This document shows, piece after piece, positions 7,773 to 48,745 of a DNA stretch of 64,000 nucleotides. The notes below the pieces were generated by a model that saw nothing but the letters and a program-made list of their open reading frames with translations, did no database searches and was not told where the DNA came from. The translations under genes and the position numbers were made by a program. Position 1 is the first letter of the stretch; each line of letters starts with the position of its first letter. This DNA is from Candidatus Zhuqueibacterota bacterium (GTDB taxonomy: Bacteria; Zhuqueibacterota; JdFR-76; DREG01), in assembly GCA_022566355.1 (NCBI GenBank), contig JADFJB010000001.1:234-64233 (forward strand), written 5' to 3'.

Positions 7773-7801
7773 TAAAAATTATGCTAAAATGTACTTTCAA
7801 T

Positions 7802-9728: not shown

Positions 9729-10030
9729 AATCTATAGTTATTTGCTAACCACTATTTTGTAGGCTGAAGTTAATCATTCTGTTAGAAAAAATCAAGCTAA
9801 CCTTCACTTCATAAATTCCAAATTTCGAGATATTGTCGTATAGTTTTACTTTTGGCCTGAAAGAATTTCTCTATAATGCCAATACGGACGATAGCCAGTC
9901 TTTTAACCGCAGTGGCAAAGTCACGGCAAACCATAACAGAAACTCAATCGATATCGTTGTTTGAGTAGTTTCGTTTCATGTTACCTTCTATAAGTCGTGT
10001 ATCCAATTTCGCTTTAAAAGAGATCGTGGT

Positions 10031-11125: not shown

Positions 11126-11231
11126 AATTTATGATTTATTTAACAACAGGGTTAACAGAGAATATAGAGTGTTTTGACTTTCTTTAGTTTCCTGGCGACC
11201 TCTGCACTCTCAGCTTTGCAATCAATATTAG

Positions 11232-11750: not shown

Positions 11751-11774
11751 GTATAAAAAAAAATATAAAGAAGT

Positions 11775-12209: not shown

Positions 12210-12655
12210 GGCTGTATGTTAATGCTTTGTTTGAATTAATAAGCGCAGAGACCGCCGAGATCACAGCGCAGCCTTGGGCCGCAACCAAATTATTTAGCCA
12301 CGGATTTACACTGATTGACACGGATAAAATCCGTTTAGAATAAAAAAATAAAAATCATTACATTCAATTTGAAATTGGTGGAAATGTTTTAGGTTCAAAT
12401 AGTGAAATTTAAAGCTCCATTTATTAAATCCGTGTTTTATCCGCGCGAATCCGTGGCTAAATTATTGTTTTTATTTAAAAGCCGTATTTGTTTGTTGATC
12501 TGTGTGTATTATCTTGGCCAACCAAAACTTTGCTAAAAAAACACGATGTTGCCGGCTTAAAGTACAGAGAAAACAAACAAGGTAACGTGTTCTCCTTAGT
12601 TGACTAAATCGAAAATTCCGCGTGCTTTGTGCACTCTGCGTTATGAGCTTTTTAA

Positions 12656-15109
12656 TTATAATACCAATTTTCTAAGTCTCAGTGCATTGACGATTACGGA
12701 AATAGAGCTAAAACTCATGGCTGCTGCAGCAATCATCGGGCTAAGTAATATTCCGAAGAACGGATAGAGAATACCGGCTGCAAGGGGCACACCCAAAGAG
12801 TTATAAATAAATGCCCAAAAGAGATTTTGACGAATGTTGCGCATCGTTCCGCGACTGAGTCGCCGAGCCCTTGCGATTCCTCTCAGATCGCCCTTCACGA
12901 GAGTTAATCCAGCGCTTTCGATAGCTACATCTGTGCCAGACCCCATGGCAATGCCCACATGTGCCTGGGCTAGTGCTGGCGCATCATTAATACCATCACC
13001 AGCCATTGCAACAATTCGTCCTTCGGATTGCAGTTGTTTAACCGTTTCATTTTTCATTTGCGGAAGCACTTCAGCTTCGACTTCATCAATTCCCAGAGTT
13101 TTTGCCACAAATTCTGCAGTCGTACGATTGTCGCCTGTCAACATGACGATTTTAATTCCCTCTTTGCGTAATAACTGAATTGCCTCCGGTGTGGATGGTT
13201 TTATCGGATCCGAAACACCCAACAAGCCGGCCGGTTTGTTATCGATTGCCACGAACATGACGGTTTCACCTTTTCGACGCATTTCCTCAGCCCTGTCGGT
13301 CAAATCGCCAAGTTGGATTTCCATTTCTTCAAAAAGTCTGCGATTACCCACAGCGACACTTCGGCCATCGATAGTACCGATAACGCCTTTGCCGGTGATG
13401 GAATCGAAATTTTCAACCGGTTTCAATTCTTGACCTCGTTTCCGTGCGCCGGTTACAATTGCTTCGGCTAATGGATGTTCGCTCGCTAGTTCCAGGCAAG
13501 CTGCCAATCGTAAGACCTCATCATCTCCATAGTCTTGCAAGCTTTCAATGCTGGTAAGCTTTGGCTTTCCTTCAGTAAGCGTGCCGGTTTTATCCACTAC
13601 CAGAGTGTCCACCTTTTCCATAGTCTCCAAAACTTCCGCATTTTTGATGAGGACGCCTGCCATTGCACCTCGCCCAGTGCCAACCATGATGGACATTGGC
13701 GTTGCCAGGCCCAATGCGCAAGGGCAGGCAATTATTAATACAGCAACTGCGTTTACCAGGGCGTAAGCCATACGCGGTTCCGGGCCCAATAATGACCATA
13801 TAATTGCAGTTAGGACACTAATAATTACTACTGCCGGCACGAAGTATGAAGCAACCTTATCTGCTAAGCCCTGAATGGGGGCGCGGCTTCGTTGCGCTTC
13901 ACTGACCATATGCACGATTTGTGCCAATAGGGTATCATTACCGATTCGTTGTGCTTCCATCACGAAGCTCCCTGTCCCGTTGACCGTCCCACCAATCACA
14001 TTCTGTCCGGATTCCTTTTGCACTGGAATGGATTCACCGGTTACCATGGATTCATCAACGGAACTGGTTCCATCGACTACAATCCCATCAACCGGAATTT
14101 TCTCACCGGGCCGAACGCGCAGTTTGTCGCCGCGTTGAACATGCTCCAGGGGAATGTCCTCTTCAACACCGTTATCCCGAACAATTCTCGCAGTATTGGG
14201 CGCCAGCCCCAGCAAGGCTTTTATTGCACTGTTGGTACGGCTTCTGGCCTTCAATTCCAAAACCTGGCCGAGAAGAACCAGTGTTGTGATTACAGCAGCC
14301 GCTTCAAAATAGACCGCTACTTCCCCTTCAGCGCCGCGGAAAGCGGCAGGGAAGATAGCCGGGAATAGCGTTGCTACCACGCTATAGATGTAGGCTACTC
14401 CAGTACCAATTGCGATTAGGGTAAACATATTAAGACTAAAATTAACAACAGAAGCCCAACCGCGTTGAAAAAAAGGCCAGCCTCCCCAGAGGACCACCGG
14501 CGATGCTAATATGAATTGAATCCAAATTAGAAGGTTTGCAGAGAATGCGTTTTGCACCGGCTTGCCAGGTATCACTTCGGACATAGCCAGAAAAAGCACG
14601 GGGATCGAAAGCCCAAAGCTTGCCCAGAATCGTCGGCTCATATCCTTTAGCTCCGGATTTTCCTCTTCATCCAAAACCACGGTTTTGAGTTCTAAAGCCA
14701 TCCCGCAAATCGGACAGATGCCGGGCTTGGATTGTACCACCTCCGGGTGCATGGGGCACGTATATCCTATTCTAGTTTGCTGTGTTACGGGTATTGCGGG
14801 TTCGAGGGACATGCCACATTTTGGACAAGATCCGGGTTCATTCTGTTCCACCTCAGGATCCATAGGGCAGGTATAAGTGACGCCTTTCATTGCTTTTTGA
14901 GTGTCTTGATGATGTTCATGCTCCACCTGTTCATGTTGCTCAACTTTGGTTGTGGTGAATGCTTCCGGATCCGATTTGAATTTTTCCAGGCAGTTTTGAG
15001 AGCAAAAATAGATGGATTCACCTTGGTAAGGAATGAAACCTGCGGCGGATGCGGGAGAAACTTCCATGCCGCAAACCGGATCTAATGTTTTAACTTTTAA
15101 GAATTGCAT
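12656..15109 (-). CDS. copA: copper-translocating P1B-type ATPase with N-terminal TRASH/YHS-like and two CPxxPEV...CPxCGM metal-binding modules
   Basis: CPC transmembrane motif ([13 protein letters not shown]), DKTGTLT phosphorylation site, GDGINDAP. N-terminal CGMEVSPAS...[23 protein letters not shown] and CPMHPEV..CPICGM modules. Confidence 0.9.
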
Positions 15110-15157
15110 TTGTTAACTTAAAATTATGGCTTTTTGTCCTAATCCTGTGTGATGCTC

Positions 15158-15544
15158 TTATAGATTCGCAATTATAGATTTCAATAAATCTCGAACCTCT
15201 TCTACGATCTCACCTAATTTAGAATTTTCCACCGCCTGCATAGAAGCCATTGGATCGATAGCAGTAACATCGACTTTGCCATCTTCAAACTCCTGTACGA
15301 TTACGTTACAGGGAAGCATGGTGCCGATTTTATTTTCTATCTGAAGCGCTTCGTAGGCAAACTGTGGGTTGCAGGCGCCTAATATGCGGTATTTGTAGAA
15401 GTCCACATCCAGCTTCTTTTTTAAGGTCTCCGTAACGTCAATCTCTGTGAGAATCCCGAAACCCTTTTCTTGTAAGGCAGCTGTAACATTTTCTATTGCT
15501 TCATCGAAGCTCTGATTCACTGTTTTTGAAAAATAGTAACTCAT
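15158..15544 (-). CDS. DUF302 domain protein
   Basis: 128 aa. The FGILTEIDVTETLKKK...YRILGACNP pattern matches DUF302, often linked to metal-resistance loci. Confidence 0.7.
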   Translation of the reverse strand: MSYYFSKTVNQSFDEAIENVTAALQEKGFGILTEIDVTETLKKKLDVDFYKYRILGACNPQFAYEALQIENKIGTMLPCNVIVQEFEDGKVDVTAIDPMASMQAVENSKLGEIVEEVRDLLKSIIANL

Positions 15545-15723
15545 TTTTTGTTCTCCTTATTTTCGTTTTGGCTTAATTTGTATCTTTTGTAAAATATAAC
15601 CAAAGGCAACATTGAATCATCAATGAAACTAAAAAACTTGATACTTATCTGTAGAGGAATGACGGATAACAAACGTGATCAAAAGTATTTTGTATCAAAA
15701 AACAACTCTCTCTATTGTACTCT

Positions 15724-18700
15724 TTAACTTGACTTCAAAACAGCAGAATCTGCCTGATCGATTTGATCTTCAATATTTTTGTTTAATCCGCGACTTCGCC
15801 ACAAAAAATAAATAGTAGGAATTACTAATAAACATAATATTGTCGTAGAAAATAGCCCTCCAACCATAGGGGCGGCGATTCGTTTCATCACCTGGGAACC
15901 GGCGCCATGGCCCCACATGATTGGTAGCAACCCAAGAATGGTTGTTGAAACAGTCATAACAATTGGCCGAATTCGCATAGCAGTTGCCTTCAGTATGACT
16001 TCTTTAAGATCTTGAAGGGAATGCAATTTGCCTTTCCGGTCATTGTAAGCATGATCCAGGTAGGTTAGCATGATAATGCCAATTTCCGCCGAGAGGCCGG
16101 CAAGCGCTATAAATCCAACTCCAACAGCAACGCTCAGGTTATAGTCGAGCAGATATATAAACCAAATACCACCGACGAGAGAAAACGGCAGCGACAACAT
16201 GACAATAAAGCTTTCTTGTATATTTTTAAAGTTGAGATAAAGCAGCAAAAAAATAATCAACAGGGTTACAGGGAGTACGATACGTAAGCGCTGTTGAGCT
16301 CGCACCATGTATTCATATTGTCCGCTCCAAACCAGGCTGTAGCCTTCAGGGAAATCTACCTCTTCTTCCACGACAATTTTAGCATTTTTCACATAAGTTC
16401 CCACATCAATATCGCGAATATCAATATACAGCCAGGCGGTACGTCGGGCGTTCTCACTTTTGATTACCGACGGACCTTTCTTGAATTCAATGTCTGCAAC
16501 GTAATTGATTGGGATCTGGGCGCCTGTGGGTGTGGCAATAAGCACCCGGCGCAGATCATCCAGATTATCTCTCAACTCCCGGCTGTAGCGCACATTTACC
16601 GGGTAACGCTCCAGACCTTCAACCGTCCACGTCACATTCATGCCGCCAATGGCCGACATTATCACATCCTGAATTGCACCTACTGTTAGGCCATATCTTG
16701 CAGCTTCCTCCCGATTAATGGTAAAATCCAGGTAATTTCCGCCCACAGTCTTGTCGGCAAAAACGCTGAGCGTTCCGGGGACATTTTTTACTACGGTAGC
16801 CACCCTTTGCGCCAGATCTGACAATACTTTAAGATCCGAACCCATAAGCTTAATACCCACCGGCGTCTTGATCCCCGTTGCCAGCATATCGATTCGTGTC
16901 TTGATCGGCATGGTCCATGCGTTTGTTAATCCAGGAAACTGGATGGATTGGTCCAGTTCTTCGATCAGTTTTTCAATCGTCATTCCCTCTCGCCACTCAT
17001 TCTCCGGCTTCAGCGTAATAGTTGTTTCGATCATCGAGAGCGGCGCTGGATCTGTGGCGGTCTCGGCGCGTCCGATTTTACCAAAGACATGGTGCACTTC
17101 CGGAAAGCTTTTGATGATTTTATCTGTCTGCTGCAAAAGCTCTTTTGCCTTGGTAATGCTGATACCTGGATCTGTAGTGGGCATGTAGAGCAAGTCTCCT
17201 TCATTTAGCGGCGGCATGAATTCCGATCCGATTCGCTGGAATGGTAAAATCGAAACAACCATGACTACAATTGCGACAATAATCGTCGACCACTTGAAGC
17301 GTAACACGAAATTGATCAAAGGTCGGTAGATTCGTATGAGAAACCGATTGATGGGGTTGACGTCCTCTGGTTTGATCCGGCCTTTGATCCAAAAACCCAT
17401 TAATACCGGTACAACGGTGATAGCTAACAAGGCAGACGCCGCCATAGCGTAGGTTTTTGTGAATGCAAGGGGGCTAAATAACCTTCCCTCCTGGGCCTGT
17501 AAAGTAAAGACTGGCAGAAAGGAAAGTGTTATGATCAACAAAGAATAAAACAGCGCCGGCCCAACTTCCTTAGCGGCATCGATGATAATAAGCCAATGAT
17601 CTTTCTTGCCGCCGTCTCTTTCGATATGTTTATGCGCATTCTCGATCATCACGATTGCCGCATCAACCATAACACCGATGGCTATGGCAATTCCGCCAAG
17701 AGACATGATGTTTGCAGTAATACCCTGGTAGGACATTATAATAAAAGCGATCAAAATTCCCATTGGCAGTGTAAATATGGCTACAAAAGCGCTGCGGAAA
17801 TGTAACAGAAAGATGATACATACCAGGGCGACGATAATAATTTCCTCGATCAGTTTGCGAGTAAGGTTATCGATTGCTTTATTGATCAACACAGATCGAT
17901 CATATGCTGCTTTGATGGTAACTCCGGGCGGCAGACCTTTCTTTAATTCTTCCATTTTTTCTTTTACAAGATCAATGGTTGCCAATGCATTTCCGCCAAA
18001 CCGCATTACGATGATGCCGCCGACAACTTCCCCCTCGCCATTCCAATCTGCTAAGCCGCGCCTTAATTCCGGACCAATGGAAACATTGGCAATGTTTTTG
18101 ATGAGTATCGGGGTGCCATGATTATCCACGCCCAATGGAATATTTTCCAAATCCTGTATAGACTTAATATATCCCAGTCCGCGCACCATAAATTCTGTTT
18201 CCCCGAATTCGACAAGGCGGCCGCCAACATCGTTATTACTGCTCTTGATCGCCATTCGAACTTTGCTGATAGAAATATTATATGCTGCGAGTTTGTTGGG
18301 ATCGACTTCGACCTGGTATTGTTTTACATAGCCGCCGATACTTGCTACTTCAGCAACTCCCGGTACGCTCATCAATTCATAACGCAGATACCAGTCCTGG
18401 ATCGAACGCAGCTGCTGCAGATCATACTGGTTGCCGCCATCCAACACGTATTCATAGATCCAACCTACGCCGGTTGCATCGGGTCCAAGTGTTGGATTTA
18501 CTCCCTGTGGTAGACGGCTGGAAACGAAATTCAAATATTCTAAAACCCGGCTGCGCGCCCAGTATAGATCAGTGCCATCCTCAAATATGATATAGACAAA
18601 TGAAAGGCCAAAGAAAGAATACCCCCGTACAGCCTTGGCAAAAGGCACCGCCAACATAGCGCTGGTAAGTGGATAGGTCACCTGGTCTTCCACCAACTGC

Positions 18701-18873
18701 GGCGCCTGTCCTGGATATTCCGTAAGAATGATTACCTGGACGTCGCTTAAATCCGGTATTGCGTCCACTGGCGTGTTGAGCAATTTATAAATACCGCCGA
18801 GAGCGATCATTATTGTGAAAATAATAACTAAAAAACGATTTTTTACTGAAGCTTCTATGATTCGTTCTATCAT
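15724..18873 (-). CDS. cusA: Cu(I)/Ag(I) HME-RND efflux permease CusA
   Basis: 1049 aa. AIPDLSDVQVIILTEYPGQAPQLVEDQVTYPLTSAMLAVP...FEDGTDLYWARSRVLEYLN...LGPDATGVGWIYEY is near-colinear with E. coli CusA by recall. Confidence 0.9.
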   Translation of the reverse strand: MIERIIEASVKNRFLVIIFTIMIALGGIYKLLNTPVDAIPDLSDVQVIILTEYPGQAPQLVEDQVTYPLTSAMLAVPFAKAVRGYSFFGLSFVYIIFEDGTDLYWARSRVLEYLNFVSSRLPQGVNPTLGPDATGVGWIYEYVLDGGNQYDLQQLRSIQDWYLRYELMSVPGVAEVASIGGYVKQYQVEVDPNKLAAYNISISKVRMAIKSSNNDVGGRLVEFGETEFMVRGLGYIKSIQDLENIPLGVDNHGTPILIKNIANVSIGPELRRGLADWNGEGEVVGGIIVMRFGGNALATIDLVKEKMEELKKGLPPGVTIKAAYDRSVLINKAIDNLTRKLIEEIIIVALVCIIFLLHFRSAFVAIFTLPMGILIAFIIMSYQGITANIMSLGGIAIAIGVMVDAAIVMIENAHKHIERDGGKKDHWLIIIDAAKEVGPALFYSLLIITLSFLPVFTLQAQEGRLFSPLAFTKTYAMAASALLAITVVPVLMGFWIKGRIKPEDVNPINRFLIRIYRPLINFVLRFKWSTIIVAIVVMVVSILPFQRIGSEFMPPLNEGDLLYMPTTDPGISITKAKELLQQTDKIIKSFPEVHHVFGKIGRAETATDPAPLSMIETTITLKPENEWREGMTIEKLIEELDQSIQFPGLTNAWTMPIKTRIDMLATGIKTPVGIKLMGSDLKVLSDLAQRVATVVKNVPGTLSVFADKTVGGNYLDFTINREEAARYGLTVGAIQDVIMSAIGGMNVTWTVEGLERYPVNVRYSRELRDNLDDLRRVLIATPTGAQIPINYVADIEFKKGPSVIKSENARRTAWLYIDIRDIDVGTYVKNAKIVVEEEVDFPEGYSLVWSGQYEYMVRAQQRLRIVLPVTLLIIFLLLYLNFKNIQESFIVMLSLPFSLVGGIWFIYLLDYNLSVAVGVGFIALAGLSAEIGIIMLTYLDHAYNDRKGKLHSLQDLKEVILKATAMRIRPIVMTVSTTILGLLPIMWGHGAGSQVMKRIAAPMVGGLFSTTILCLLVIPTIYFLWRSRGLNKNIEDQIDQADSAVLKSS

Positions 18874-18971
18874 GTTAGATTTCTCCGTGTGTCCATTGTA
18901 CTGAAAGATTCCATTTCTTCGAGAGACTGTGTGAAAATGGGAATAATTTTTATTACGATTCTAAAAGAACG

Positions 18972-19080
18972 CATGTCATTCCATAGGCTGCGTCCTGAGT
19001 GAAGTCGAAGGAAATCTTGTTATGGTTTGTGTAAGGTGTTGTTTTTTAACAAAGATCCAGTCACACGACGGGATGACATG
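18972..19080. repeat. structured intergenic repeat, copy B
   Basis: Terminal inverted repeat catgtcattcc ... cgacgggatgacatg. Shares ggaaatcttgtta with copies A/D, cgacgggatgacat with copy D, and core cctgagtgaagtcgaagg with copy C. Confidence 0.55.
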
Positions 19081-19168
19081 TGTCGGACTTTTTAAATTAT
19101 GTGATGATTCCATTAAACTTCGTGGTTAAAATAGTTTTCACACAGTAATCAGCGATAGAATAGCTGTT

Positions 19169-20716
19169 TCAGTGATTATGTTCTTTCGATTCCATGTTCT
19201 GCATGTTTTCCATCTCTTTCTTTTCTTTTGTTGCGCTATCTTGCGTATCCATTGGCTGTGTTTTTTTCTGTTTCTCAGCTAACAATTTTTGAATAACTTC
19301 TTGTAAGCGGCTTTCACTGTCAAGTAGAAACTGCGCTGAAATAACAACTTCTTCATTTCCAATGAGGCCGGAGATCACGCGGATTTTTCCGTTATCTCCT
19401 TCTTCTCCTAGTTTTACCTGCCGTGGTTCAAATTTTCCTTCACCCCGAACAACAAAAATCACATTTCGAGTGCCAGACCGTATGACCGCTTCGGATGGTA
19501 TGATTACAGCATCTTTTATGGTAGGAGTCTGGATTTCTATATTCGCATACATACCAATCTTTAGCTCCAGAACCGGATTGGAAAAATCAAGGCGGACATG
19601 AGCAGTCCGTGATTTCTCGCGAAGATATGGGTAGATATAAGCGACTCTACCATGGAAAATCTTTCCAGGCAGGTAAGAAAGCTCCATTTTTGCTTCCGCC
19701 CCTTCCCGAATCCATGGCAATTCATAGTCATAAATACTTGCGTGAACCCAGATACTGGACAAATCTGCAATTTCATATAAATTTGTACCCGCCTTAACAT
19801 GAAGGCCTTCAACAGCATTCTTTTGCACCACCATTCCACTTGCCGGCGATTCCAGCCTGATTGTTTTCTTTACTTCGCCGGTCTTTTCTAATCGATCAAT
19901 TTCTGATTTAGGAACATCCCAGTAGAGAAGACGTTGTCGGCTTGATTCAAAAAGTGACTCCGAGTTTCTTGTAATCGAATCAAAAGTGCTCTTGGCTAGT
20001 TTCTTCCGGTTCTCAAGAGCCAACAAGAATTCTTGCTGGGTGATCACTAGCTCCGGTGAATAAATTTCGAGGAGAGGCTCTCCTTTACGAACCATCTCTC
20101 CTACGTAATTCACAAATAGCTTTTCGATCCAACCGGAAATTTTGGTGGTTACAATATATAGTTTTTCTTCATTGTACTGGATCTTTCCCACCGTTCGGAT
20201 GGAACGGGTAAAATCTCCGCGTTCAACCATGGTGGTTCGAACACCCATGTTTTGTACAGTTACCGGGTCAATTTTTATATAACCACCAGCGCCAAGAGTT
20301 GTCTGGTCTTCATAGACTGGGATCAAGTCCATTCCCATCTTCGATTTCCCTGACTCGTCGTATATTTCAGTTGGATCCATGGGAGCTTGCCAATACAATA
20401 CTTTGCGCTCACCTTTCGATTGTGTATCTTGAATTTCAGATTCCCCAGAAGTAATCCTTACCGGAACAAGATCCATCTTGCATATAGGACATTGACCGGG
20501 TTCATGCAACAGAACTTCCGGATGCATTCCGCATGTCCATAACTGGCTCTCTTCCTGATGTTCCATCGCTGCCATTTCTGTGGTTTTTTCCTCTGAACCA
20601 CAACTGGATAAGCTTACAATTAACCCGAAAAGAAGTGGAATGGAAAGAAAGGTTAATGCCCTTACTGATAAGTTTGATTTATTTTTCATTCTGTACTCCA
20701 TTAATTTGATTGTCAT
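19169..20716 (-). CDS. cusB: efflux RND periplasmic adaptor CusB-like with N-terminal CxxPEV...CPxC metal-binding module
   Basis: 515 aa with signal/lipo region, then CGMHPEVLLHEPGQCPICKMDLV, then MFP beta-barrel/lipoyl domains. 4-bp overlap with upstream TolC gene. Ends in TGA. Confidence 0.8.
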   Translation of the reverse strand: MTIKLMEYRMKNKSNLSVRALTFLSIPLLFGLIVSLSSCGSEEKTTEMAAMEHQEESQLWTCGMHPEVLLHEPGQCPICKMDLVPVRITSGESEIQDTQSKGERKVLYWQAPMDPTEIYDESGKSKMGMDLIPVYEDQTTLGAGGYIKIDPVTVQNMGVRTTMVERGDFTRSIRTVGKIQYNEEKLYIVTTKISGWIEKLFVNYVGEMVRKGEPLLEIYSPELVITQQEFLLALENRKKLAKSTFDSITRNSESLFESSRQRLLYWDVPKSEIDRLEKTGEVKKTIRLESPASGMVVQKNAVEGLHVKAGTNLYEIADLSSIWVHASIYDYELPWIREGAEAKMELSYLPGKIFHGRVAYIYPYLREKSRTAHVRLDFSNPVLELKIGMYANIEIQTPTIKDAVIIPSEAVIRSGTRNVIFVVRGEGKFEPRQVKLGEEGDNGKIRVISGLIGNEEVVISAQFLLDSESRLQEVIQKLLAEKQKKTQPMDTQDSATKEKKEMENMQNMESKEHNH

Positions 20717-22011
20717 TTTCCCATTGCAAAATCACCGCCAACCGCACGTTCAAGCGCTGCCACTTGTTTGCAATAGTTGGCTTGTTCATTGGTATATGCC
20801 AATCGAAGTTGTAGAAGCATACGTTCTGCATCCAGTAAATTGAGAAAATCCAGTTTGCCGGTTTGGTACGCAGCAATGGCTGATTGCAAACTGCTCTCCG
20901 CTTGCGTAAGTAAACCCTGTTCGTACAAATCCAAAATTTCTGCCAGTGTTTTTATTTGAAAAATTAGGTCTGCAACCTCAGCTTGAACATGATTCATCAA
21001 GTTCTCATAGCTTAAATTCTGTGCCAGGATATTCTCTTCGGCCTGGTTCACACCAGCTTTTCTACCGCCTAACCATATAGGCAGGTTAATACCAACCAAG
21101 ATACCGAAAGGATCTTTACCTGAATCCGAAAATGAATTGTTTACCTTAGGAATTGTAATGTAAGTGGCTTGAATATTGAAATCCGGGTAGTAATTTTTTT
21201 TCGCCAATCTTTTGGCGAACTCAGCCTTTCGGATCATCGATTGATTGGCAAGCAGTTCTTGGCGCTGTGCAAGAGCCCGCTGCAATAATTGATTTTCATT
21301 GAGTTGAATCCTGCATGAATCGATCACCACAACGAGTCCAATGGGCGCATTCACTGGTTGATCCAACAAGGCATTCATTCTTGTTACCACGCCTGTTCGC
21401 ATTTTATCAAAGTTGAGTTGTTTAACGATGATGTTTGAAATTTCCACATGGGCTTTTAGTACTTGCGCCTGGATGCCTTGTCCGGTACTGTATCTTGTTG
21501 TAGCTACCTGGGCGAAATCACGGAGTAGATCAAGATATTGGTCGAGTATTTGTTTTGAACGGTCAACTTTGTAAAGATTGAAATAAGTAGTCTTTACTTT
21601 GAAAATCACATCACGGCGAACTGCACTCAGGTGATATTGGGCCGCTTCAGCATCCTGGTTGGCAATCTCACCTTTAAGACCAAGTTTGCCTGGAAACGGA
21701 ATGCGCTGTGTCAGCATGAATACATTTTCTTGCGGTCCAACTCGTGTTTCCACATTCTCTATCCACCTGGTATAACTTAACATTGGATCTGGCAGGGTAG
21801 AGACCTGGCTCGGAATATTGAGAAAAGCCAAGTAGCGTTTCTCAGCTGCTTGAATGGCAGGATTGTTCTGTGCAGCCTCTTGAATCAAATAGTTTAAGGA
21901 TACCGGGGCCTTGGTTTTCAAGTCACTTGCACCCGTTTTTCCCTGGGCACTAATTTGCCAGGGAATCCAAATCCCTGAAATCAAAAATAAATAGAAATAA
22001 ACTCGAAGCAT
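20713..22011 (-). CDS. TolC-family outer membrane efflux protein (CusC-like)
   Basis: 432 aa with signal peptide and TolC repeat structure. ATGA overlap with cusB-like gene. Confidence 0.8.
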   Translation of the reverse strand: MLRVYFYLFLISGIWIPWQISAQGKTGASDLKTKAPVSLNYLIQEAAQNNPAIQAAEKRYLAFLNIPSQVSTLPDPMLSYTRWIENVETRVGPQENVFMLTQRIPFPGKLGLKGEIANQDAEAAQYHLSAVRRDVIFKVKTTYFNLYKVDRSKQILDQYLDLLRDFAQVATTRYSTGQGIQAQVLKAHVEISNIIVKQLNFDKMRTGVVTRMNALLDQPVNAPIGLVVVIDSCRIQLNENQLLQRALAQRQELLANQSMIRKAEFAKRLAKKNYYPDFNIQATYITIPKVNNSFSDSGKDPFGILVGINLPIWLGGRKAGVNQAEENILAQNLSYENLMNHVQAEVADLIFQIKTLAEILDLYEQGLLTQAESSLQSAIAAYQTGKLDFLNLLDAERMLLQLRLAYTNEQANYCKQVAALERAVGGDFAMGK

Positions 22012-37053: not shown

Positions 37054-37698
37054 TTAGTTCAACACAACATACCTTTCCAACCTGGAAACCTCCTTTTCGT
37101 CCACGTACTTACCAATTTCACGACGAAATTGCTTTAGGTTTCTATATGGGCGGTACTCTTTAAATTCATGAAGCATCCGTTTACCAACTCCGGGAATACT
37201 CAGGATGTCTTCGTCACTTGCCGTATTCAGATTGATTGGGACAAAAACATACTGTTCCAGGCGCGCCAATTCCTTATCGTTCACATATTTTCCGATCTCT
37301 CTTCGGAATTGCGCCAGGGCCTTATAGGGACGATACTCCTCGAACTCATGGGCCATACGTTTACCTACACCGGGAACCAGCCAAACTTCTTTTCGGGAAG
37401 CTGTGTTGAGGTTAATTGGGATAAATAATGTAACATACAATTTGGACAATGAGTCTTTGTGTACTGACTGACTGAGTAATGTGTCCAATTCGGTCATTCT
37501 CAAAAAAGGCCGGTTTTCCAAAATATCCTTTACAAGCTTTTTATTGAGTTGAGGAAGTGAAAGCAGCTCCTTTTCCCCTGCCCGATTCGGATTTAGAACA
37601 TTTTTGTTGTTGCCAACCTGACTAAATGCGGCACATACAGTAATAATTACAAAAATGAAAACCATCATTATTGTAAATAAAGATTTATTTGAAGTCAT
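37054..37698 (-). CDS. helix-hairpin-helix repeat protein (ComEA-like), internally duplicated
   Basis: Signal peptide. Repeated INLNTAS..E.L..PGVGKRM.HEF motifs (HhH). A ~180-bp DNA duplication (about 37075-37255 and 37255-37435) yields two near-identical protein modules. Confidence 0.65.
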   Translation of the reverse strand: MTSNKSLFTIMMVFIFVIITVCAAFSQVGNNKNVLNPNRAGEKELLSLPQLNKKLVKDILENRPFLRMTELDTLLSQSVHKDSLSKLYVTLFIPINLNTASRKEVWLVPGVGKRMAHEFEEYRPYKALAQFRREIGKYVNDKELARLEQYVFVPINLNTASDEDILSIPGVGKRMLHEFKEYRPYRNLKQFRREIGKYVDEKEVSRLERYVVLN

Positions 37699-38215
37699 CT
37701 AAATTCTCCCGTTTTAATTTGGATTCTTTTTGGTTTATTCGAAAAACCGGATGTCTAAAAGTGTAAACCGATCCCAGCAGACCAAGCTGGATCATTATGC
37801 CTGGAGCCAAAAAAGGTGTTGCACCTTTGATCGATTTCCAGAAAAGTTCTAATCCGGATAAAGAAGGATACATCTCTAACTCGAATTCTACATTAACTCG
37901 ATAATGTAAGATAACGCCAACACAGCCACTAATCATAAATAATATCATCACTATCTGAAGCACTCGCAAAACCATAGAAACACGTTTGAAAGCAAACCAG
38001 CCTAGAACTACCAGACTACCGCAAATAAGAATAAGAGGCACAAATTGCCAGTAGACTTCAAAATGTTCTAGTAGCAGAAGTTCCACACCAGCGCCCAGTA
38101 AACCGGCAACAAATATGAGTAAAAGAAGATTTCGAATAATCTTACCAGTTGTGAAATTGCTGTGTTTGTCAGATGAGGTATTGTTCATTAGATAATGTAC
38201 ATAATACATTTTCAA
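37685..38215 (-). CDS. hypothetical 4-TM membrane protein
   Basis: 176 aa, hydrophobic. Divergent from the TetR gene. Confidence 0.45.
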   Translation of the reverse strand: MKMYYVHYLMNNTSSDKHSNFTTGKIIRNLLLLIFVAGLLGAGVELLLLEHFEVYWQFVPLILICGSLVVLGWFAFKRVSMVLRVLQIVMILFMISGCVGVILHYRVNVEFELEMYPSLSGLELFWKSIKGATPFLAPGIMIQLGLLGSVYTFRHPVFRINQKESKLKRENLDDFK

Positions 38216-38417: not shown

Positions 38418-39065
38418 ATGGAGCAACTTGACACGAGAACGAGACTGTTAGATGTGGCCGAAGAATTATTTGCAGAGAAGGGAATCGGATCAACTTCCCT
38501 GCGAAAAATTATTGCTGAAGCAGGCGTCAACCTCGCATCTATTCATTACCATTTTGGCTCCAAGGAAGCCCTTGCCTGGGAGGTTTTTGCCCGGCGTATT
38601 AAACCCGTTAATGCGGAACGGCTACAGCGACTCGACAGAATTGAGGAAAGATCCGGTGAGACACCTCCAAACCTTGAAGAATTGATCAGGGCATTCATCG
38701 AACCGGCAATCCGGATTAAGTTTGATGAACCTGAACGCACCAAACTTATTCTTAGGCTGGTTGCTCAATTACAATCGGATTCCGGGAATTTAGGTGACCA
38801 TTTTGTTGATCTATTTGAAGAAGTAGCAACGCGATTCATAGCTGCATTTCAAGCCGCTCTTTCCCAGCATTCCCATGCAGAACTTTATTGGCGTTTTAAA
38901 TTTATGCTCGGCGTCATGCATATGATCATGGCACAGCCTCCGGTGCAGGAAAGTAAAATATTTTCACCCCCGGAATTGGATCTGGAGAGTATTTTAGCCC
39001 ACGTAATTCCGTTCCTGGTAGCAGGTTTTAAAACACCTACTTTAAATGTCTTAAAACAGGAATAA
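38418..39065 (+). CDS. TetR/AcrR-family transcriptional regulator
   Basis: N-terminal HTH RTRLLDVAEELFAEKGIGSTSLRKIIAEAGVNLASIHYHFGSKEAL. Confidence 0.85.
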   Translation: MEQLDTRTRLLDVAEELFAEKGIGSTSLRKIIAEAGVNLASIHYHFGSKEALAWEVFARRIKPVNAERLQRLDRIEERSGETPPNLEELIRAFIEPAIRIKFDEPERTKLILRLVAQLQSDSGNLGDHFVDLFEEVATRFIAAFQAALSQHSHAELYWRFKFMLGVMHMIMAQPPVQESKIFSPPELDLESILAHVIPFLVAGFKTPTLNVLKQE

Positions 39066-39069
39066 AACT

Positions 39070-40509
39070 ATGGTAAGAAAATTATTTGTTTTACTGCTGA
39101 CACTTTTATTCATCTCATGCGCTTCGGCGCCGTCAAAACAAGATATAGAAACTGGGGTAACTGCTCCGACTAGCTGGCAATATTCTTCAACCATTGCTGC
39201 TGAAATCGATTCTGCATGGTGGACTGAATTTAACGATCCTCAACTGAACCAGGTTTTGGATGAAGCCTTCAATAAAAATTACGATCTAACCATTGCTGCT
39301 GCTAATTTTCATTCTGCAGCTGCCCAGGCAAGGATCGCCGGCGCTCCACTTTACCCACAAGCGAATCTTTCCTTTAACGGCGCCAGAAACAAACAAAATT
39401 TTATTGGATTTCCTATCCCTGGCGCCGGAGGCAACGTCTTAAGCAGCACAACGACTTCATTCGGTGTCTCGATGAATGTAAGCTGGGAGCTCGATTTATG
39501 GGGACGATTGCGATCGGATAAGGCAGCGGCTGTAGCTCAACTTCAAGCAACTCACGCTGATTTTATTGGCGCGAGGCTTTCTTTAGCTGCCCAGGCCAGC
39601 AAAAGCTGGTTTGCTGCCATTGAAGCAAAACGACAGATGGAATTATCGCAGGCTACGGCTGATAGCTGGCTCACATCTTATGAACGAGTTCAAAGACGCT
39701 ACGAAAATGGCTTGACCAGTTCCCTGGATCTTCGTTTGTCTCGAGCCAATCTGTCTATTGCAGAAGCCAACCTCAGCGCCAGAAAATCCCAGTATGAAAA
39801 TGTGTTACGGCAACTTGAAATACTCTTGCGACGATATCCTTCGGCAAGTATGGAAATAAACCGTGAACTTCCGGAAACATCAAGAGAAGTTCCAACTGGA
39901 TTGCCAGCCGACCTGGTTTCACGCCGACCTGACCTGGCGGCTGCGGAACGACGTTTAGCTGCATCTTATGCCGGCGTTTCAGGCGCTAAAGCTGCACTGC
40001 TGCCGCAAATCAGTCTTACAAGCTCCGGAGGAACTTCCAGCAATCAGCTTAACGATTTATTAAATGGAAATTTTAGTGTTTGGAGTATTGCCGGTAGTTT
40101 GTTGCAACCTATCTTTCAAGGCGGGAGATTGCGTGCGAATGTCGATCTCGCTAAAACCAAAACTGAGATTGCCCTGGCACAATACCAACGTGCCCTTCTG
40201 AATGCCTTTGCTGAGGTTGAGAATGCCCTGGCTAACGAGAAGTACTTAAATGAACGGCAGGTTGCTTTAAAAGAAGCAACGCGACAATCTACAGCGGCCC
40301 AGGCTCTGGCAGAGTCACAGTACAATCGGGGCTTAATCAATTTCGTAACCATGCTGGAAACCCAGCGAGCAGCCTATGACAATGAACGGCAATTGCTTAC
40401 CGTCCGCCGGCAGCGCCTTGATGCAAGAATCGATCTGTACCTGGCGCTGGGTGGTGGTTTTACAGTCAACAAAGACAAACAGATTCAAGATCAGGAGAAT
40501 CCGTTATGA
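39070..40509 (+). CDS. RND efflux outer-membrane lipoprotein, NodT family
   Basis: Lipobox LLFISCASAP, two TolC-like repeats, NodT-type length of 479 aa. Confidence 0.85.
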   Translation: MVRKLFVLLLTLLFISCASAPSKQDIETGVTAPTSWQYSSTIAAEIDSAWWTEFNDPQLNQVLDEAFNKNYDLTIAAANFHSAAAQARIAGAPLYPQANLSFNGARNKQNFIGFPIPGAGGNVLSSTTTSFGVSMNVSWELDLWGRLRSDKAAAVAQLQATHADFIGARLSLAAQASKSWFAAIEAKRQMELSQATADSWLTSYERVQRRYENGLTSSLDLRLSRANLSIAEANLSARKSQYENVLRQLEILLRRYPSASMEINRELPETSREVPTGLPADLVSRRPDLAAAERRLAASYAGVSGAKAALLPQISLTSSGGTSSNQLNDLLNGNFSVWSIAGSLLQPIFQGGRLRANVDLAKTKTEIALAQYQRALLNAFAEVENALANEKYLNERQVALKEATRQSTAAQALAESQYNRGLINFVTMLETQRAAYDNERQLLTVRRQRLDARIDLYLALGGGFTVNKDKQIQDQENPL

Positions 40510-41711
40510 AGGAAAAGAAGAAATTTGTTCTACCTATATTGGTGATTTTTGTTAGCATCCTGGGTGCAATCGTGATTGTTGCATCCAGACCTGAAGTTAA
40601 GCCCTTACCTCCTGAGGTCTCAAGAAAAATAATTCGAGCGCAGAAAGTGTACAAACAAAGCGTTCAAATGGTAGTCAAATCGCAAGGAACTGTAGTACCT
40701 CGAACAGAAAGTGTACTGGTTTCCCAGGCGGCAGGGCTTATCATTGCCGTCTCGCCATCATTCGTTGTAGGTGGATTCTTTGAGAAAGGAGATGTTCTGG
40801 TTTCTCTCGATCCACGCGATTATGAATTTGCCCTGACACAGGTAAAACATCAAGTTGCCCAAACCGAGTTATCTTTGGAAATTGAAGGACAGGAAGCCAA
40901 GATTGCAAAAGAAGAATGGCATCGTTTAAATGATGGCCAAGCGCCTCCGTTGGTTGCCAGGGAGCCGCAGGTGAACCAGGCTCGCGCAGCGTTGGAAGCT
41001 GCTAAGGCAGGTATGTTGCAGGCCCAGCTCAATCTTGAACGAACCCAAATTCGAGCGCCGTTTTCAGGGCGGGTACGCAATAAGCATGTAGACGTTGGCC
41101 AGTACGTTACTCCCGGTTTGGCGGTAGCTAAGATTTATGCTGTTGATTATGTAGAAGTTCGTCTCCCCATACCCGATGAAGAACTTGCTTATGTTGACAT
41201 TCCTTTGGATTTTCGTGGTGCAAAAACGAACCACAAAGGGCCAATAGTAATTCTGAAGACGCGCTTCGCAGGTGAAGAACATGAATGGCAGGGCTATATC
41301 ACCCGGATTGAAGGAGAGATCGATGCACGCAGCAGAATGATTCATGCGGTCGTCCGGGTTGAAAATCCCTATAGCAAAAAACCCAACTCAATTAGGCCTC
41401 CATTAACAGTCGGGATGTTTGTGTATGCGGAAATCGAAGGGAAATATGTAGATGATTTGTATGCGATCCCGCGTGCTGCTCTTCGAGATAATGGCCAGGT
41501 CCTGATTGTGGATGCTGATGAGCGCTTACGATTTCGCAACGTTGAGCCATTTCGTTTCGATTCTGAAATTGTATATATTCGTTCAGGGCTGGAAGACGGA
41601 GAGCAAATTTGCATTTCGACACTTCAGGCAGTCGTCGATGGTATGCCGGTTAGTGTACTAGAAGAAAAAGTTTATGTAGGTAAAGAAACAAAATTAGAGG
41701 AGACCAAATGA
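40506..41711 (+). CDS. efflux RND periplasmic adaptor subunit (AcrA/HlyD-like)
   Basis: N-terminal TM, coiled-coil hairpin and beta-barrel domains. 4-bp overlaps on both sides. Confidence 0.85.
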   Translation: MKEKKKFVLPILVIFVSILGAIVIVASRPEVKPLPPEVSRKIIRAQKVYKQSVQMVVKSQGTVVPRTESVLVSQAAGLIIAVSPSFVVGGFFEKGDVLVSLDPRDYEFALTQVKHQVAQTELSLEIEGQEAKIAKEEWHRLNDGQAPPLVAREPQVNQARAALEAAKAGMLQAQLNLERTQIRAPFSGRVRNKHVDVGQYVTPGLAVAKIYAVDYVEVRLPIPDEELAYVDIPLDFRGAKTNHKGPIVILKTRFAGEEHEWQGYITRIEGEIDARSRMIHAVVRVENPYSKKPNSIRPPLTVGMFVYAEIEGKYVDDLYAIPRAALRDNGQVLIVDADERLRFRNVEPFRFDSEIVYIRSGLEDGEQICISTLQAVVDGMPVSVLEEKVYVGKETKLEETK

Positions 41712-44700
41712 ATCGTGCCATAGAGTGGTTTGCTCATAACCGGGTAACGGCAAATCTTCTAATGATTGCCATTATTGTGGCTGGTGTTATATCTCTGTCA
41801 CAAATAAAATTGGAAGTTTTCCCGGAGTTTTCTGCAGATTTGATTAGGGTCTCGGTAGCCTACTTAGGCGCTGCTCCGGAGGAAGTGGAGGAAGGTGTCT
41901 GCGTCCGAGTGGAAGAAGCGATTCAAGACCTTGAAGGAATTAAGAAAATCACTGCAACAGCATCGGAGAATATAGGTACTGTTGTGATAGAAGTTGAAAC
42001 CGGTTATGATATTAGGAAATTGTTGGATGACATCAAATCCCGTGTAGATGCCATTACTACTTTCCCAAGGGAAACCGAAAAACCAGTGGTCCAGGAAATA
42101 CTGAACCGCCGACAGGTTATCAACGTAGCCATTTCGGGCCAGGCGGATGAGAAAAGCCTTAAATTTCTCGGGGAGCGAATCAGGGATGAAATTAGCGACT
42201 TGCCGGAGATTAGTCAAGTGGAATTAACCGCTGCCCGGCCTTATGAAATTGCCATCGAAGTATCTGAAGAAGCATTGCGCCGCTATGGACTCACTTTCGA
42301 TGAAGTGGCCCAGGCAGTTCGATTGTCTTCTTTGGATCTACCTGGTGGTTCGATTAAAACCAGTAGCGGTGAAATATCATTACGGACTAAAGGGCAGGCT
42401 TATCGCGGTCAAGAATTCGAAAATTTGATCTTGCGTACTTCAGCGGATGGAACGCGACTGAAACTGGGAGATGTTGCAACTATTGTCGATGGTTTTGCAG
42501 AAAGCGATCAATTTTCCAGGTTTAATAACGAACCTACGGTTCTGGTTCAAATTTTCAGAGTAGGAGAAGAAAATGCCCTAACAGTAGCCAATGCTGTAAA
42601 AGAGTATATCGCAGAAGCGCAATTGCGAATGCCGGAAGGAATCCACCTCACCACCTGGCAAGACGACTCGCTGCTGCTAAAAGATCGACTCAATTTACTT
42701 CTGCGTAACGGGCGCAACGGTTTTATATTGGTCTTTCTGGCTCTTGCATTATTTTTAAGATTAAGGCTGGCATGGTGGGTGACGGTAGGGATGATCATCT
42801 CGTTTTTTGGCGCATTTTGGGTGATGCCCAATTTTGATGTCTCCATCAATATGATCTCATTGTTTGCCTTCATACTGGTACTCGGTATCATCGTTGATGA
42901 CGCAATTATAGTGGGAGAAAATGTTTATACACACCTGGAACAAGGTAAAAGTAGTTTAAGAGCGGCCATTGAAGGAGCACAAGGGGTCGCAGTTCCTGTG
43001 ACCTTTGCCGTATTGACTACAGTAGCTGCATTTTCGCCTTTGCTTTCCGTTGCTGGTTTCATGGGAAAAATTATGAGAGTTATTCCCATTATTGTTATTG
43101 CTACACTGTTATTTTCCCTGGTTGAATCGTTGCTAATTTTGCCGGCCCACTTGTCTCATCTTCATCTCAAGAATAAAAAAAAACCAAGCTGGGGTTTAGC
43201 AAAATGGTGGGATAAATTTCAGGAGGGATTTGCCGTAAAATTACGCTACTTCATTAATGTACATTACCGCAATATTCTGGACCTGGCTTTGCGCTGGCGC
43301 TATCTTTCCATTTCCCTGGGTGTCGGGATGCTCATTCTTACCATTGGCCTGGTTGCCGGAGGCAGGATAAAATTTACTTTCATGCCCCAGGTTGAGGCTG
43401 ACAATGTCGTAGCCCTCTTAACCATGCCCCAGGGAACATCCGCTGATGTTACCGCCCAGGCGGTTAAGGTCCTGGAAGAAAACGCCCTAAAACTGAAAAA
43501 CGAATTTAAAGATGGAGACAGCACGCCAATTCAGCACATTCTGGCTTCGGTTGGCTCCCAACCGTTTCTTACTCGACAAATGAATCCTGGCGGTCCCAGC
43601 ACAAGTACATTTAGTGGTTCCCATCTTGGTGAAGTAAACCTCCAGTTGTTTTCCTCTGAAATCCGTGATGTAACCAGCCCGGAATTAGCGCAACGATGGC
43701 GTGAGTTAGTCGGTACTGTGCCGGATGCTGAAAAATTGATTTTCTCCTCGTCATTGTTCTCTGTGGGTGAAGCGATCAATTTTCAATTAGCGGGTGCAAA
43801 CTACGAAGAGCTCCAGCTAGCCGCGAATGAACTCAAAGCCCGGATTGGTGAATACCCCGGAGTTTTTGATATTTCAGACTCGTTTCGGGGTGGGAAAAAA
43901 GAGATCAAACTCAAAATAAAACCCGAAGCTGAAGCACTCGGACTTTCTCTTTCCGATCTGGCGCGGCAAGTGCGCCAGGCATTTTACGGTGAGGAAGTAC
44001 AGAGAATTCAACGCGGTCGTGACGATATTCGTGTCATGGTTAGATACCCGGAGAACCAGCGAAAATCTTTGGGTGATCTTGAGAATATGCGTATTCATAT
44101 ACCTGGCGGGGGAGAAGTTCCGTTCCATATCGCGGCAGAAGTCCAACAAGGCATCGGCTTTGCTTCCATCAACCGCACTGACCGCAAAAGGACCATCAAC
44201 ATCACGGCAGATGTTGACTTAAGCAAAGCAAATGCCAACGAGATTGTCGCCGACATCAGCGCAAATGTGATGCCTTATCTGCTGGAAAAATACCCGGGCT
44301 TAAGTTATTCCCTTGAGGGTGAACAATCCGAACAGCAGAAGACCCTTGCCGGCTTGGGACGAGGATTTTTGTTTGCCTTGCTGATCATATATATTTTGCT
44401 TGCCATTCCTTTTCGCTCATATTCCCAACCTTTCATCGTGATGAGCGCTATTCCGTTTGGATTGATTGGTGCAATATGGGGTCATGTGTTTATGGGATTG
44501 AATTTAACCATCCTTTCCGGATTTGGCGTGGTTGCATTAACCGGTGTAGTGGTTAATGATAGCTTGTTGATGGTTGATTTCGTCAACCGGGCAAGGGCAT
44601 CAGGACTGCCTCTTCATGAGGCCATCCGGGAGGCTGGGGGTTCTCGTTTTCGGCCGATCATGCTAACCTCATTGACCACTTTCGCCGGACTTACACCACT

Positions 44701-44893
44701 GCTCCTGGAAAGAAGCCTGCAGGCACAATTCCTGATTCCAATGGCCATTTCGCTTGCTTTTGGTGTCATGTTTGCGACTTTGATTACGCTGATATTAGTG
44801 CCTTGTATTTACCACATTCTGGAGGATGTGAAAGTAGGGTTGGCTAAGGGTTGGAGAAGAGTTCGAACTGAACCGGAATTGGTTGAGGTATGA
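41708..44893 (+). CDS. multidrug RND permease (HAE1, AcrB/AcrD/AcrF family)
   Basis: 1061 aa. MNRAIEWFAHNRVTANLLMIAIIVAGV N-terminus and 12-TM two-porter-domain organisation. Confidence 0.9.
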   Translation: MNRAIEWFAHNRVTANLLMIAIIVAGVISLSQIKLEVFPEFSADLIRVSVAYLGAAPEEVEEGVCVRVEEAIQDLEGIKKITATASENIGTVVIEVETGYDIRKLLDDIKSRVDAITTFPRETEKPVVQEILNRRQVINVAISGQADEKSLKFLGERIRDEISDLPEISQVELTAARPYEIAIEVSEEALRRYGLTFDEVAQAVRLSSLDLPGGSIKTSSGEISLRTKGQAYRGQEFENLILRTSADGTRLKLGDVATIVDGFAESDQFSRFNNEPTVLVQIFRVGEENALTVANAVKEYIAEAQLRMPEGIHLTTWQDDSLLLKDRLNLLLRNGRNGFILVFLALALFLRLRLAWWVTVGMIISFFGAFWVMPNFDVSINMISLFAFILVLGIIVDDAIIVGENVYTHLEQGKSSLRAAIEGAQGVAVPVTFAVLTTVAAFSPLLSVAGFMGKIMRVIPIIVIATLLFSLVESLLILPAHLSHLHLKNKKKPSWGLAKWWDKFQEGFAVKLRYFINVHYRNILDLALRWRYLSISLGVGMLILTIGLVAGGRIKFTFMPQVEADNVVALLTMPQGTSADVTAQAVKVLEENALKLKNEFKDGDSTPIQHILASVGSQPFLTRQMNPGGPSTSTFSGSHLGEVNLQLFSSEIRDVTSPELAQRWRELVGTVPDAEKLIFSSSLFSVGEAINFQLAGANYEELQLAANELKARIGEYPGVFDISDSFRGGKKEIKLKIKPEAEALGLSLSDLARQVRQAFYGEEVQRIQRGRDDIRVMVRYPENQRKSLGDLENMRIHIPGGGEVPFHIAAEVQQGIGFASINRTDRKRTINITADVDLSKANANEIVADISANVMPYLLEKYPGLSYSLEGEQSEQQKTLAGLGRGFLFALLIIYILLAIPFRSYSQPFIVMSAIPFGLIGAIWGHVFMGLNLTILSGFGVVALTGVVVNDSLLMVDFVNRARASGLPLHEAIREAGGSRFRPIMLTSLTTFAGLTPLLLERSLQAQFLIPMAISLAFGVMFATLITLILVPCIYHILEDVKVGLAKGWRRVRTEPELVEV

Positions 44894-46775: not shown

Positions 46776-47237
46776 TCAGGTTAGTTGATATTCAGTAGTG
46801 ATTTCAATCGCTTTATGCAAAGATTTATAAACCGGACAGTAATCTGCGTGCATACTATGAACGCGTTCGATCGTTTCTTTAGCCTCTTTTGTTGCAGATA
46901 TCCTATAGAGTACATGAATACGCCGAATAACAAGGACATTGTCTTCTAATTCAACTTCTCCCCTGACTTCCGCAGTAAGCTTCTTATTGCTAGCATCAAC
47001 TTGACGCGCTTCCAGCGCGCTTCCAAAAGTTCCGGTGAGTCAGCCGCCGGTTGCTGCGATCACATAATCTATGGTTGTTGCTTGTGGTTCGGAGATATCC
47101 GGACTGATCCCGTAATGCTTGGCGATATCACCGTGCACACCAAACTTAACCGTTTGGTTTACTGGCAGATAGGCTGTACGTAATGGCCCGTGATGGCGTT
47201 CGATTTGTATTTTTGAGACATAGACAACATCTGGCAT
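46776..47237 (-). CDS. osmC: OsmC-family peroxiredoxin-like protein with in-frame TGA at the conserved peroxidatic Cys (candidate selenoprotein, or point-mutated pseudogene)
   Basis: Track ORF 47040-47237 ends IDYVIAATGG-TGA. The same frame continues LTGTFGSALEARQV...HSMHADYCPVYKSLHKAIEITTEYQLT* to 46776. The C-terminal ...CPV..L...EIT..YQL is colinear with E. coli OsmC (..AGCPVSQVLKAEITLDYQLKS), and the TGA aligns with ..AAAHAG-C-FSMAL. Confidence 0.7.
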
Positions 47238-47410
47238 TTTGACCTCCGATTCATATTCGTGTTTATAAAATTTACTTTTTTGATAAAAACATCCTGAACT
47301 TTTTTATGGCGAAGTAAGCTAGCTAAAACCATCTAAACTGTCAAGTAATAAGTTAACAATTTAGAAGCCTCTTCGGTTAAGGCTTGATTATTGGTTCTTT
47401 GAATTTGTAA

Positions 47411-47450
47411 TTTATTTGGTATTTGGTATTTGGTATTTGGTATTTGGTAT
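47411..47450. repeat. heptanucleotide tandem repeat (ggtattt)x5 in OsmC-like upstream region
   Basis: tttggtatttggtatttggtatttggtatttggtatttggtttttgtcttttgtg. Confidence 0.8.
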
Positions 47451-47471
47451 TTGGTTTTTGTCTTTTGTGAT

Positions 47472-48524: not shown

Positions 48525-48553
48525 TCGTTTATGGGGTTAATTAACTCGATCTA

Positions 48554-48745
48554 TTCATAAACTTTGTCACTGGTTTATAAAACTGTCATTCCCGTCCCGC
48601 CTGGGCGGGATTATCGGGAATCTTGTTACACAGGCCCATAGACCCCCGATAAAAGCACTCGGGGGTGACAATTTTGGGGTTCTCGGACACCCCGAAAGTA
48701 TTCGGGAACTACACTCTGTAGCATCCTGCGCGACGGGATGACATT
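48554..48745. repeat. structured intergenic repeat, copy D (long form)
   Basis: ~85-90% identical to copy A over ~130 bp with a 20-bp GC-rich insertion (gtcccgcctgggcgggatta). Outer inverted repeat tgtcattcccgtc ... gacgggatgacat. Confidence 0.7.

Follow-up and report, generated by a model that had tools for sequence, protein, structure and literature searches.

A putative selenocysteine-containing OsmC-family protein of candidate division KSB1 encoded across an in-frame UGA

On the minus strand of the window, which is the whole 64,000-nucleotide stretch of DNA that was analyzed, a reading frame was found that very probably constitutes one functional gene for a selenocysteine (Sec)-containing peroxidase of the OsmC/Ohr superfamily. 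The source organism is named candidate division KSB1 in the records. As judged from the alignments, the catalytic Cys of the protein has almost certainly been replaced by Sec through an in-frame UGA. The evidence consists of the conservation of this UGA, the existence of homologs with Cys at the same position, purifying selection on the codons past the UGA, a downstream hairpin, the OsmC fold and the register of the active site.

The reading frame and its internal UGA codon

The gene encodes 65 residues, followed by TGA as codon 66, 87 sense codons and a TGA stop (Table 1). Around the internal codon the translation reads ...DYVIAATGG-U-LTGTFGSALEAR. The original prediction had counted 88 codons after the TGA; translation gives 87, and these contain neither frameshifts nor extra stops. 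GenBank has two separate entries for the gene, a hypothetical protein of 65 aa (MCH8124380.1) and an "OsmC family protein" of 79 aa (MCH8124379.1). The same mRNA carries UGA twice, once with the hairpin and putatively read as Sec, once without a hairpin and serving as the termination codon.

Table 1. Positions of the OsmC-family gene and its elements within the window
Feature	Position	Strand	Remarks
Putative selenoprotein gene, OsmC-fold product	46776..47237	(-)	153 codons including Sec66, plus terminal TGA
Shine-Dalgarno sequence GGAGG	47243..47247	(-)	5-nt spacer to ATG; found by sequence inspection
ATG start	47237..47235	(-)	
In-frame UGA, putative Sec codon	47040..47042	(-)	codon 66; peroxidatic position
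bSECIS-like hairpin GCGCGC-UGGAA-GCGCGU	47004..47020	(-)	codons 73-78 (S-A-L-E-A-R)
Cys134 codon (TGT)	46836..46838	(-)	invariant Cys in "CP" motif; putative resolving Cys
Terminal TGA	46778..46776	(-)	codon 154

Related loci were gathered by one scan of a genome collection and one of a metagenome collection. The 84 that were examined encode proteins 51-93% identical to the window protein and belong mostly to Acidobacteriota, and the metagenome collection contains at least 482 confirmed stretches of this OsmC clade, mostly named Acidobacteriota or Terriglobia. In all 84 loci the codon homologous to codon 66 is TGA; TGC, TGT, TAA or TAG occurred in none of them. When only unique genes are counted, the internal codon is TGA in 82 out of 82 while their own terminal stops are distributed over TGA (31), TAG (30) and TAA (21). 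The naive probability of such an exclusive use of TGA at the internal site, uncorrected for phylogeny, is about 2e-35. Cys codons were found in more distant homologs, TGT in P0003 and P0004 and TGC in P0015 and P0018. The question raised beforehand, whether the closest relatives carry Cys or Sec at this position, is answered by TGA throughout. Pairs of Cys and Sec homologs are the classic signature by which selenoproteins have been defined.

Selection on the two parts of the gene was compared with the closest relative, L001, whose protein is 93% identical, which shares synteny on the downstream side and which also has TGA at codon 66. The dN/dS values are nearly equal, 0.077 for the part preceding the UGA (18 synonymous and 6 nonsynonymous changes) and 0.079 for the part following it (13 synonymous and 4 nonsynonymous), indicating that both parts have been under the same purifying selection in the KSB1 lineage. 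The family alignment is likewise conserved along its full length on both sides of the UGA. These data bear on the possibility that the gene is a pseudogene, in which a TGC or TGT codon of a Cys-containing OsmC gene suffered a nonsense mutation to TGA and the downstream frame is decaying. The original prediction had left the choice between such a lesion and Sec recoding undecided. A pseudogene would agree with the way in which gene callers and GenBank end the reading frame at the TGA, leaving a hypothetical 65-aa protein and a 79-aa OsmC fragment, and with the absence of Sec machinery from the window. It is, however, extremely improbable, since the same TGA is present in every related locus down to 51% identity, the hairpin is conserved, and the 87 intact codons past the TGA evolve under the same constraint as those before it. 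Recoding is thus supported and a lesion contradicted.

An artifact of sequencing or assembly may be considered at codon 66 as in any metagenome-assembled sequence, and had been raised as a concern in this case, but beyond this prior possibility nothing speaks for it. Three independent assemblies from different samples (L092, L093 and L094) are 99.5-99.98% identical to the window and all have TGA at codon 66; in the OsmC gene, L092 and L093 differ from the window by no substitution and L094 by one. Records of the 65-aa stub exist for 18 contigs, and the neighboring dehydrogenase has an identical product on 23 contigs. As the TGA is in addition common to all 84 related loci, the probability of an error at this codon is close to nil. 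One of these loci carries a TAG 12 codons past the UGA (L064:523, ALEAR*), the sole case among the 84, which is either a true pseudogene or a sequencing error.

The way in which the gene has been split in GenBank recurs in its relatives. A protein database search yielded about 100 matches that are C-terminal fragments of approximately 90 aa, as they result from gene callers stopping at a Sec codon. A dozen "full-length" database proteins carry W at the Sec position; their DNA has TGA that was read under another genetic code.

The downstream hairpin and the decoding of the UGA

The GC-rich hairpin foreseen 19 nt 3' of the UGA was recovered at exactly this distance (47020..47004). With the U of the UGA taken as nt 1, nt 23-28 pair with nt 34-39. 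For its assessment, the consensus criteria of the published bSECISearch model were used, and the hairpin agrees with four out of four. The apical loop comprises 5 nt (UGGAA; 3-9 nt allowed) and the upper stem 6 bp in the window and 6-7 bp in the family (4-16 bp allowed). The loop U-G-G-A-A (UGGAN in the family) also fits the pattern N1-G-[G/U]-N-N2, which calls for a G at loop position 1 or 2 and for N1 and N2 able to pair; here the G is at position 2 and another G follows. The distance between UGA and loop is 25 nt (16-37 nt allowed), and the minimum free energy (MFE) amounts to -10.5 kcal/mol (limit -7.5 kcal/mol), compared to a family mean of -13.6 kcal/mol. Like the archetype of E. coli fdhF, the window hairpin fits the bSECIS consensus, from which it nevertheless departs in having a very short, all-G/C and nearly invariant stem that lies inside the conserved peptide A-L-E-A-R.

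All six stem pairs are formed in each of 75 unique homolog sequences. The outer pairs alternate between G-C and G-U and between C-G and U-G, and the inner four are invariant. In one locus (L052) both bases of a C/U-G pair have changed to give A-U, which entails an Arg-to-Leu substitution. The codons that form the stem are fixed: GCG for Ala (81/81), CTG for Leu (81/81), again GCG for Ala (81/81) and CGY for Arg (80/80). By contrast, other Ala codons of the same gene make use of all four synonyms, and Gly, Thr, Phe and Leu codons vary as well. The stem codons are frozen even in the KSB1 genome with its GC content of 40.6%. The case for an RNA structure, which is made from sequence comparison, draws mainly on these frozen synonymous sites, while covariation is thin (two one-sided pairs and one double change). 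The original description of the hairpin as weak holds for the single sequence, since the 71 nt after the UGA fold no better than shuffled ones (z = +0.84), but it does not hold in view of the agreement with all four bSECIS criteria and the fixation of synonymous sites in the homologs.

Among four homologs in their Cys form, the hairpin is lost in two, kept in one and weakened in one. Its absence from two of them is the pattern expected once Sec has been replaced by Cys. Its retention in the other two fits a recent conversion of Sec to Cys, but is evidence, too, that coding for the peptide A-L-E-A-R favors the hairpin sequence. The only substitution in the OsmC gene of L094 (A217G, Ser73Gly; L094:3190-3651 compared to window position 47021) turns a basal A-C mismatch into a G-C pair, giving a stem of 7 bp as in most homologs.

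An arrangement that would do without recoding is a split gene, in which translation really ends at the TGA and a separate C-terminal chain is made by restart or coupling at the adjacent codon, yielding a two-chain OsmC. It may be suggested by the TGA-ATG junction present in 63 of the 82 unique homologs, where gene callers let the fragment of about 90 aa begin. In the window and in 18 other genes, however, the next codon is CTN and neither a start codon nor a Shine-Dalgarno sequence is available. Moreover, if the codon were a plain stop, TAA and TAG should occur beside TGA, as they do at the ends of these genes; the residue deleted would be exactly the catalytic one; homologs of the Cys form run through without interruption and have Cys at the same position; and the frozen hairpin at SECIS distance would be left unexplained. 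Taken together, a split gene is highly improbable, and reading through the UGA is the preferred interpretation.

It is also conceivable that recoding of the UGA inserts a residue other than Sec. Recoding systems that insert Cys by means of a SelB-like factor and tRNA(UCA) exist, and a code with UGA for Trp or Gly would have the same effect on the reading frame. Sequence data cannot distinguish which amino acid is inserted, and some gene callers give homologs a W at this position. On the other hand, TGA was said to be a normal stop elsewhere in this genome, and in the window it indeed ends 12 of the 47 long ORFs, the OsmC gene included; the normal protein lengths obtained in this way point to the standard code. 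The W calls also run past the true terminal TGA into junk ("FINWCC"). In addition, the gene displays the features by which selenoproteins are recognized (conserved UGA, Cys homologs, purifying selection and bSECIS), and selA, selB and selD are common in KSB1 according to published surveys. Insertion of a residue other than Sec is for these reasons quite improbable.

As to the decoding capacity, selA, selB, selD and tRNA-Sec were not detected in the 64-kb window by ARAGORN, by Rfam at gathering thresholds or by Pfam analysis of 30 window ORFs. Sec machinery was also absent from the approximately 9 kb past the right end of the window, which hold only polysaccharide-synthesis genes, and from the surroundings of the OsmC gene in 91 related loci, where ARAGORN found no tRNA-Sec either. 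A phylogenomic study of KSB1 reported selA, selB and selD in three of four clades, with counts per genome in its supplements, which do not list the assembly of the window. Sec-containing group 4 hydrogenases were described for KSB1 and Acidobacteriota in a 2026 study. From these surveys at the level of the phylum, the organism of the window presumably possesses the Sec trait. A six-frame scan of the window that included N- and C-terminal extensions revealed no other TGA joining two long frames into one protein. The sole further intergenic TGA of this kind, at 31456, was considered as a second Sec site and rejected, as it separates the unrelated genes of an Mrp/NUBPL-type ATPase and a PCP_red-domain protein. 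ARAGORN further called a "tRNA-Thr(ggt)" of 93 nt on the minus strand (37724-37816) inside the ORF 37685-38215, where Rfam showed no tRNA at its gathering score; this call is probably a false positive.

Fold, proposed mechanism and known relatives

With Cys at codon 66, the 153-residue protein, close in length to the OsmC/Ohr-fold product that had been anticipated, matches the Pfam family OsmC (PF02566) with 56 bits (gathering score 27.5; E 5.9e-15, residues 56-149). The first 55 or so residues lie beyond this match and contain an invariant VHGxIAxHY motif. As predicted from its surroundings, the UGA falls on the peroxidatic Cys: in the alignments U66 takes the place of the conserved Cys in T. 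thermophilus OsmC (1ukk, "AHAGCFS"), E. coli YhfA (1ml8, "AAGGCSA") and 2opl ("ALSGCLT"). The second, resolving CP motif that had been proposed could be placed as well, Cys134 of "YCPVY" corresponding to the second conserved Cys in both 1ukk and 1ml8; it is invariant in the alignments A1-A3. The fold was approached by proxy, through an AF2 model of P0003, a Cys homolog 64% identical to the window protein (pLDDT 85.3, pTM 0.80). When this model was compared to the PDB by Foldseek, nearly all of the 50 listed matches were OsmC, Ohr or OsmC-like proteins (probability 1.00, TM-scores 0.4-0.55). According to the model, residue 66 would open a long helix (H57-78 in P0003) and Cys134 would lie in the C-terminal helix pair, as in OsmC and Ohr.

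From this register and from the properties of related systems, we infer Sec as the inserted residue, its dependence on SelB, the peroxidase chemistry, the substrates and the reductant. The hairpin 19 nt past codon 66 would recruit SelB-GTP-Sec-tRNA(Sec), and Sec would be inserted at this UGA in place of termination, while the UGA at codon 154, lacking a hairpin, would terminate translation. The product of 153 residues would adopt an OsmC-type fold with Sec66 at the N-terminus of the long helix, in the peroxidatic site. By analogy with OsmC and Ohr, Sec66 may attack the hydroperoxide and become a selenenic acid, with which Cys134 would condense to a selenenylsulfide, and a thiol reductant would regenerate the Sec66/Cys134 enzyme. 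The protein can thus be pictured as a putative two-residue hydroperoxide reductase with Sec66 as the peroxidatic and Cys134 as the resolving residue.

This kind of protein has been known since 2005 and its mechanism is conventional, with nothing new in it. The first OsmC-like selenoproteins came from the Sargasso Sea in 2005 (three sequences, COG1765, motif UxxT) and further ones from the GOS data in 2008 (five sequences), in agreement with the statement in the original prediction that they occur in marine metagenomes and are rare; a 2026 review lists them under PF02566 with the motif UxxT. The window protein shares with this marine family and with the curated NCBIfam model NF041052 ("OsmC-related (seleno)protein") the Pfam domain, a UGA in place of the redox Cys, the existence of Cys homologs and a bSECIS with a G in the apical loop; the equivalence of its Sec position to that of the marine proteins is indirect, via 2opl. 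It is set apart by the published motif, as the clade of the window has U-[LM]-x-G-T instead of UxxT. The Gly at +3 is present in 20 of 20 sequences of alignment A1 and in 84 of 84 loci, the search pattern for the loci having required a G there. Against the NF041052 cut-off of 95 bits the window protein scores 22.1 and P0003 18, none of the relatives scored exceeds about 22 bits, and the best E-value among 20 members of the OsmC clade is 1.2e-4. Unlike the curated OsmC-like selenoproteins, the clade also carries the N-terminal VHGxIAxHY region outside the Pfam match, and whereas the marine family is rare (three and five sequences), it is abundant in metagenome contigs and MAGs (the stretches counted above). 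Going by its sequence, the window protein would be an OsmC-superfamily selenoprotein like the known OsmC-like ones, but outside the curated NF041052 family.

With Cys-containing OsmC (1ukk; E. coli 1nye/1qwi) and YhfA-type proteins (1ml8, 2opl), it has in common the modeled fold (Foldseek probability 1.00) and the register of the two redox sites, the peroxidatic one and the resolving Cys of the C-terminal "CP" motif. What separates it from them is the low identity of only 10-19% and the replacement of Cys by Sec. For the OsmC subfamily peroxiredoxin TIGR03562, its score of 19.9 bits lies far below the cut-off of 85.8. Ohr proteins (1n2f, 1zb9, 6ebg) appear to have the same fold, as far as the model allows this comparison, and the same two-residue redox logic, though no match of the window protein to an Ohr-specific HMM was found. 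Ohr is reduced by lipoyl proteins, a property that need not extend to the window protein.

Genomic context and significance

In 22 related acidobacterial loci, the OsmC gene adjoins a gene for a fusion of an AhpC/TSA redoxin with DsbD_N, a second candidate selenoprotein, located approximately 1.1 kb 5' to the OsmC UGA and on the same strand in most loci (opposite in 3 of 22). This gene has a TGA of its own in all 22 cases, within the UxxC motif ADW-U-P-[FYW]-C (L030:1614, L002:2127, the latter a genome MAG, and 20 more loci), and 17 nt past it a conserved hairpin, GCAGCU-NGUN-AGCUGC. Like the OsmC gene, it is split by gene finders. Its TGA is, on sequence grounds, an independent sign that the carriers read UGA as Sec at redox sites. 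The fusion resembles the Prx-like or redoxin UxxC selenoproteins, which differ from OsmC in their thioredoxin-like fold and here in being fused to DsbD_N, and its position suggests a shared role in peroxide or thiol-redox metabolism. In approximately 10-14 loci (e.g., L036:2268-4103), the downstream neighbor encodes a fusion of CMD (AhpD-like) and an ECF sigma-70 factor, which may be a redox-sensing regulator tied to the OsmC gene. Both acidobacterial neighbors, the Sec-redoxin-DsbD_N gene upstream and the CMD-ECF sigma gene downstream, are compatible with a function in peroxide or thiol-redox metabolism.

In the KSB1 window, the OsmC gene stands alone between the gene for a D-2-hydroxyacid dehydrogenase and a hypothetical gene, with a TetR-regulated RND efflux operon just downstream; the redoxin-DsbD_N gene is not adjacent to it there. 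The spacer of 235 nt between the OsmC gene and the dehydrogenase gene upstream contains a perfect-looking tandem repeat of the heptamer TATTTGG (6.9 copies, 47413-47460), and synteny with L001 stops near this repeat, at about 47353. Many genes for metal handling and efflux are located in the regions 6726-22011 and 38418-44893. They include three HlyD/OEP sets, at least one of them with an AcrB-type RND pump, and a P-type ATPase in which HMBD and YHS domains are present; a CopD-like match is weak and sub-threshold. Two intergenic stretches of about 150 bp, at 2440-2583 and 48540-48692, are 84% identical to each other. They may represent a small dispersed repeat, whose copies in other strains share 92% identity with 2440-2583.

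As regards annotation, the two GenBank pieces of 65 and 79 aa are to be corrected into one gene, and about 100 public homologs are truncated in the same manner. A well-supported selenoprotein is gained for the little-studied phylum KSB1. Somewhat better than even is the standing of a broader reading, in which the window gene belongs to a distinct, almost all-Sec OsmC subfamily and about a quarter of the loci contain a two-selenoprotein module. Such a subfamily would be abundant in soil Acidobacteriota and present in KSB1, would have been missed by the curated models, and its members would systematically be held in the public databases as two fragments. If this is true, OsmC and the Sec-redoxin-DsbD_N protein encoded upstream would form a dedicated two-selenoprotein module for the reduction of peroxides. 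The large, mostly acidobacterial clade, whose members as a rule have Sec and only exceptionally Cys, is useful for comparing the peroxidatic chemistry of Sec and Cys within the OsmC/Ohr fold, and also for gauging the selenium dependence of soil bacteria.
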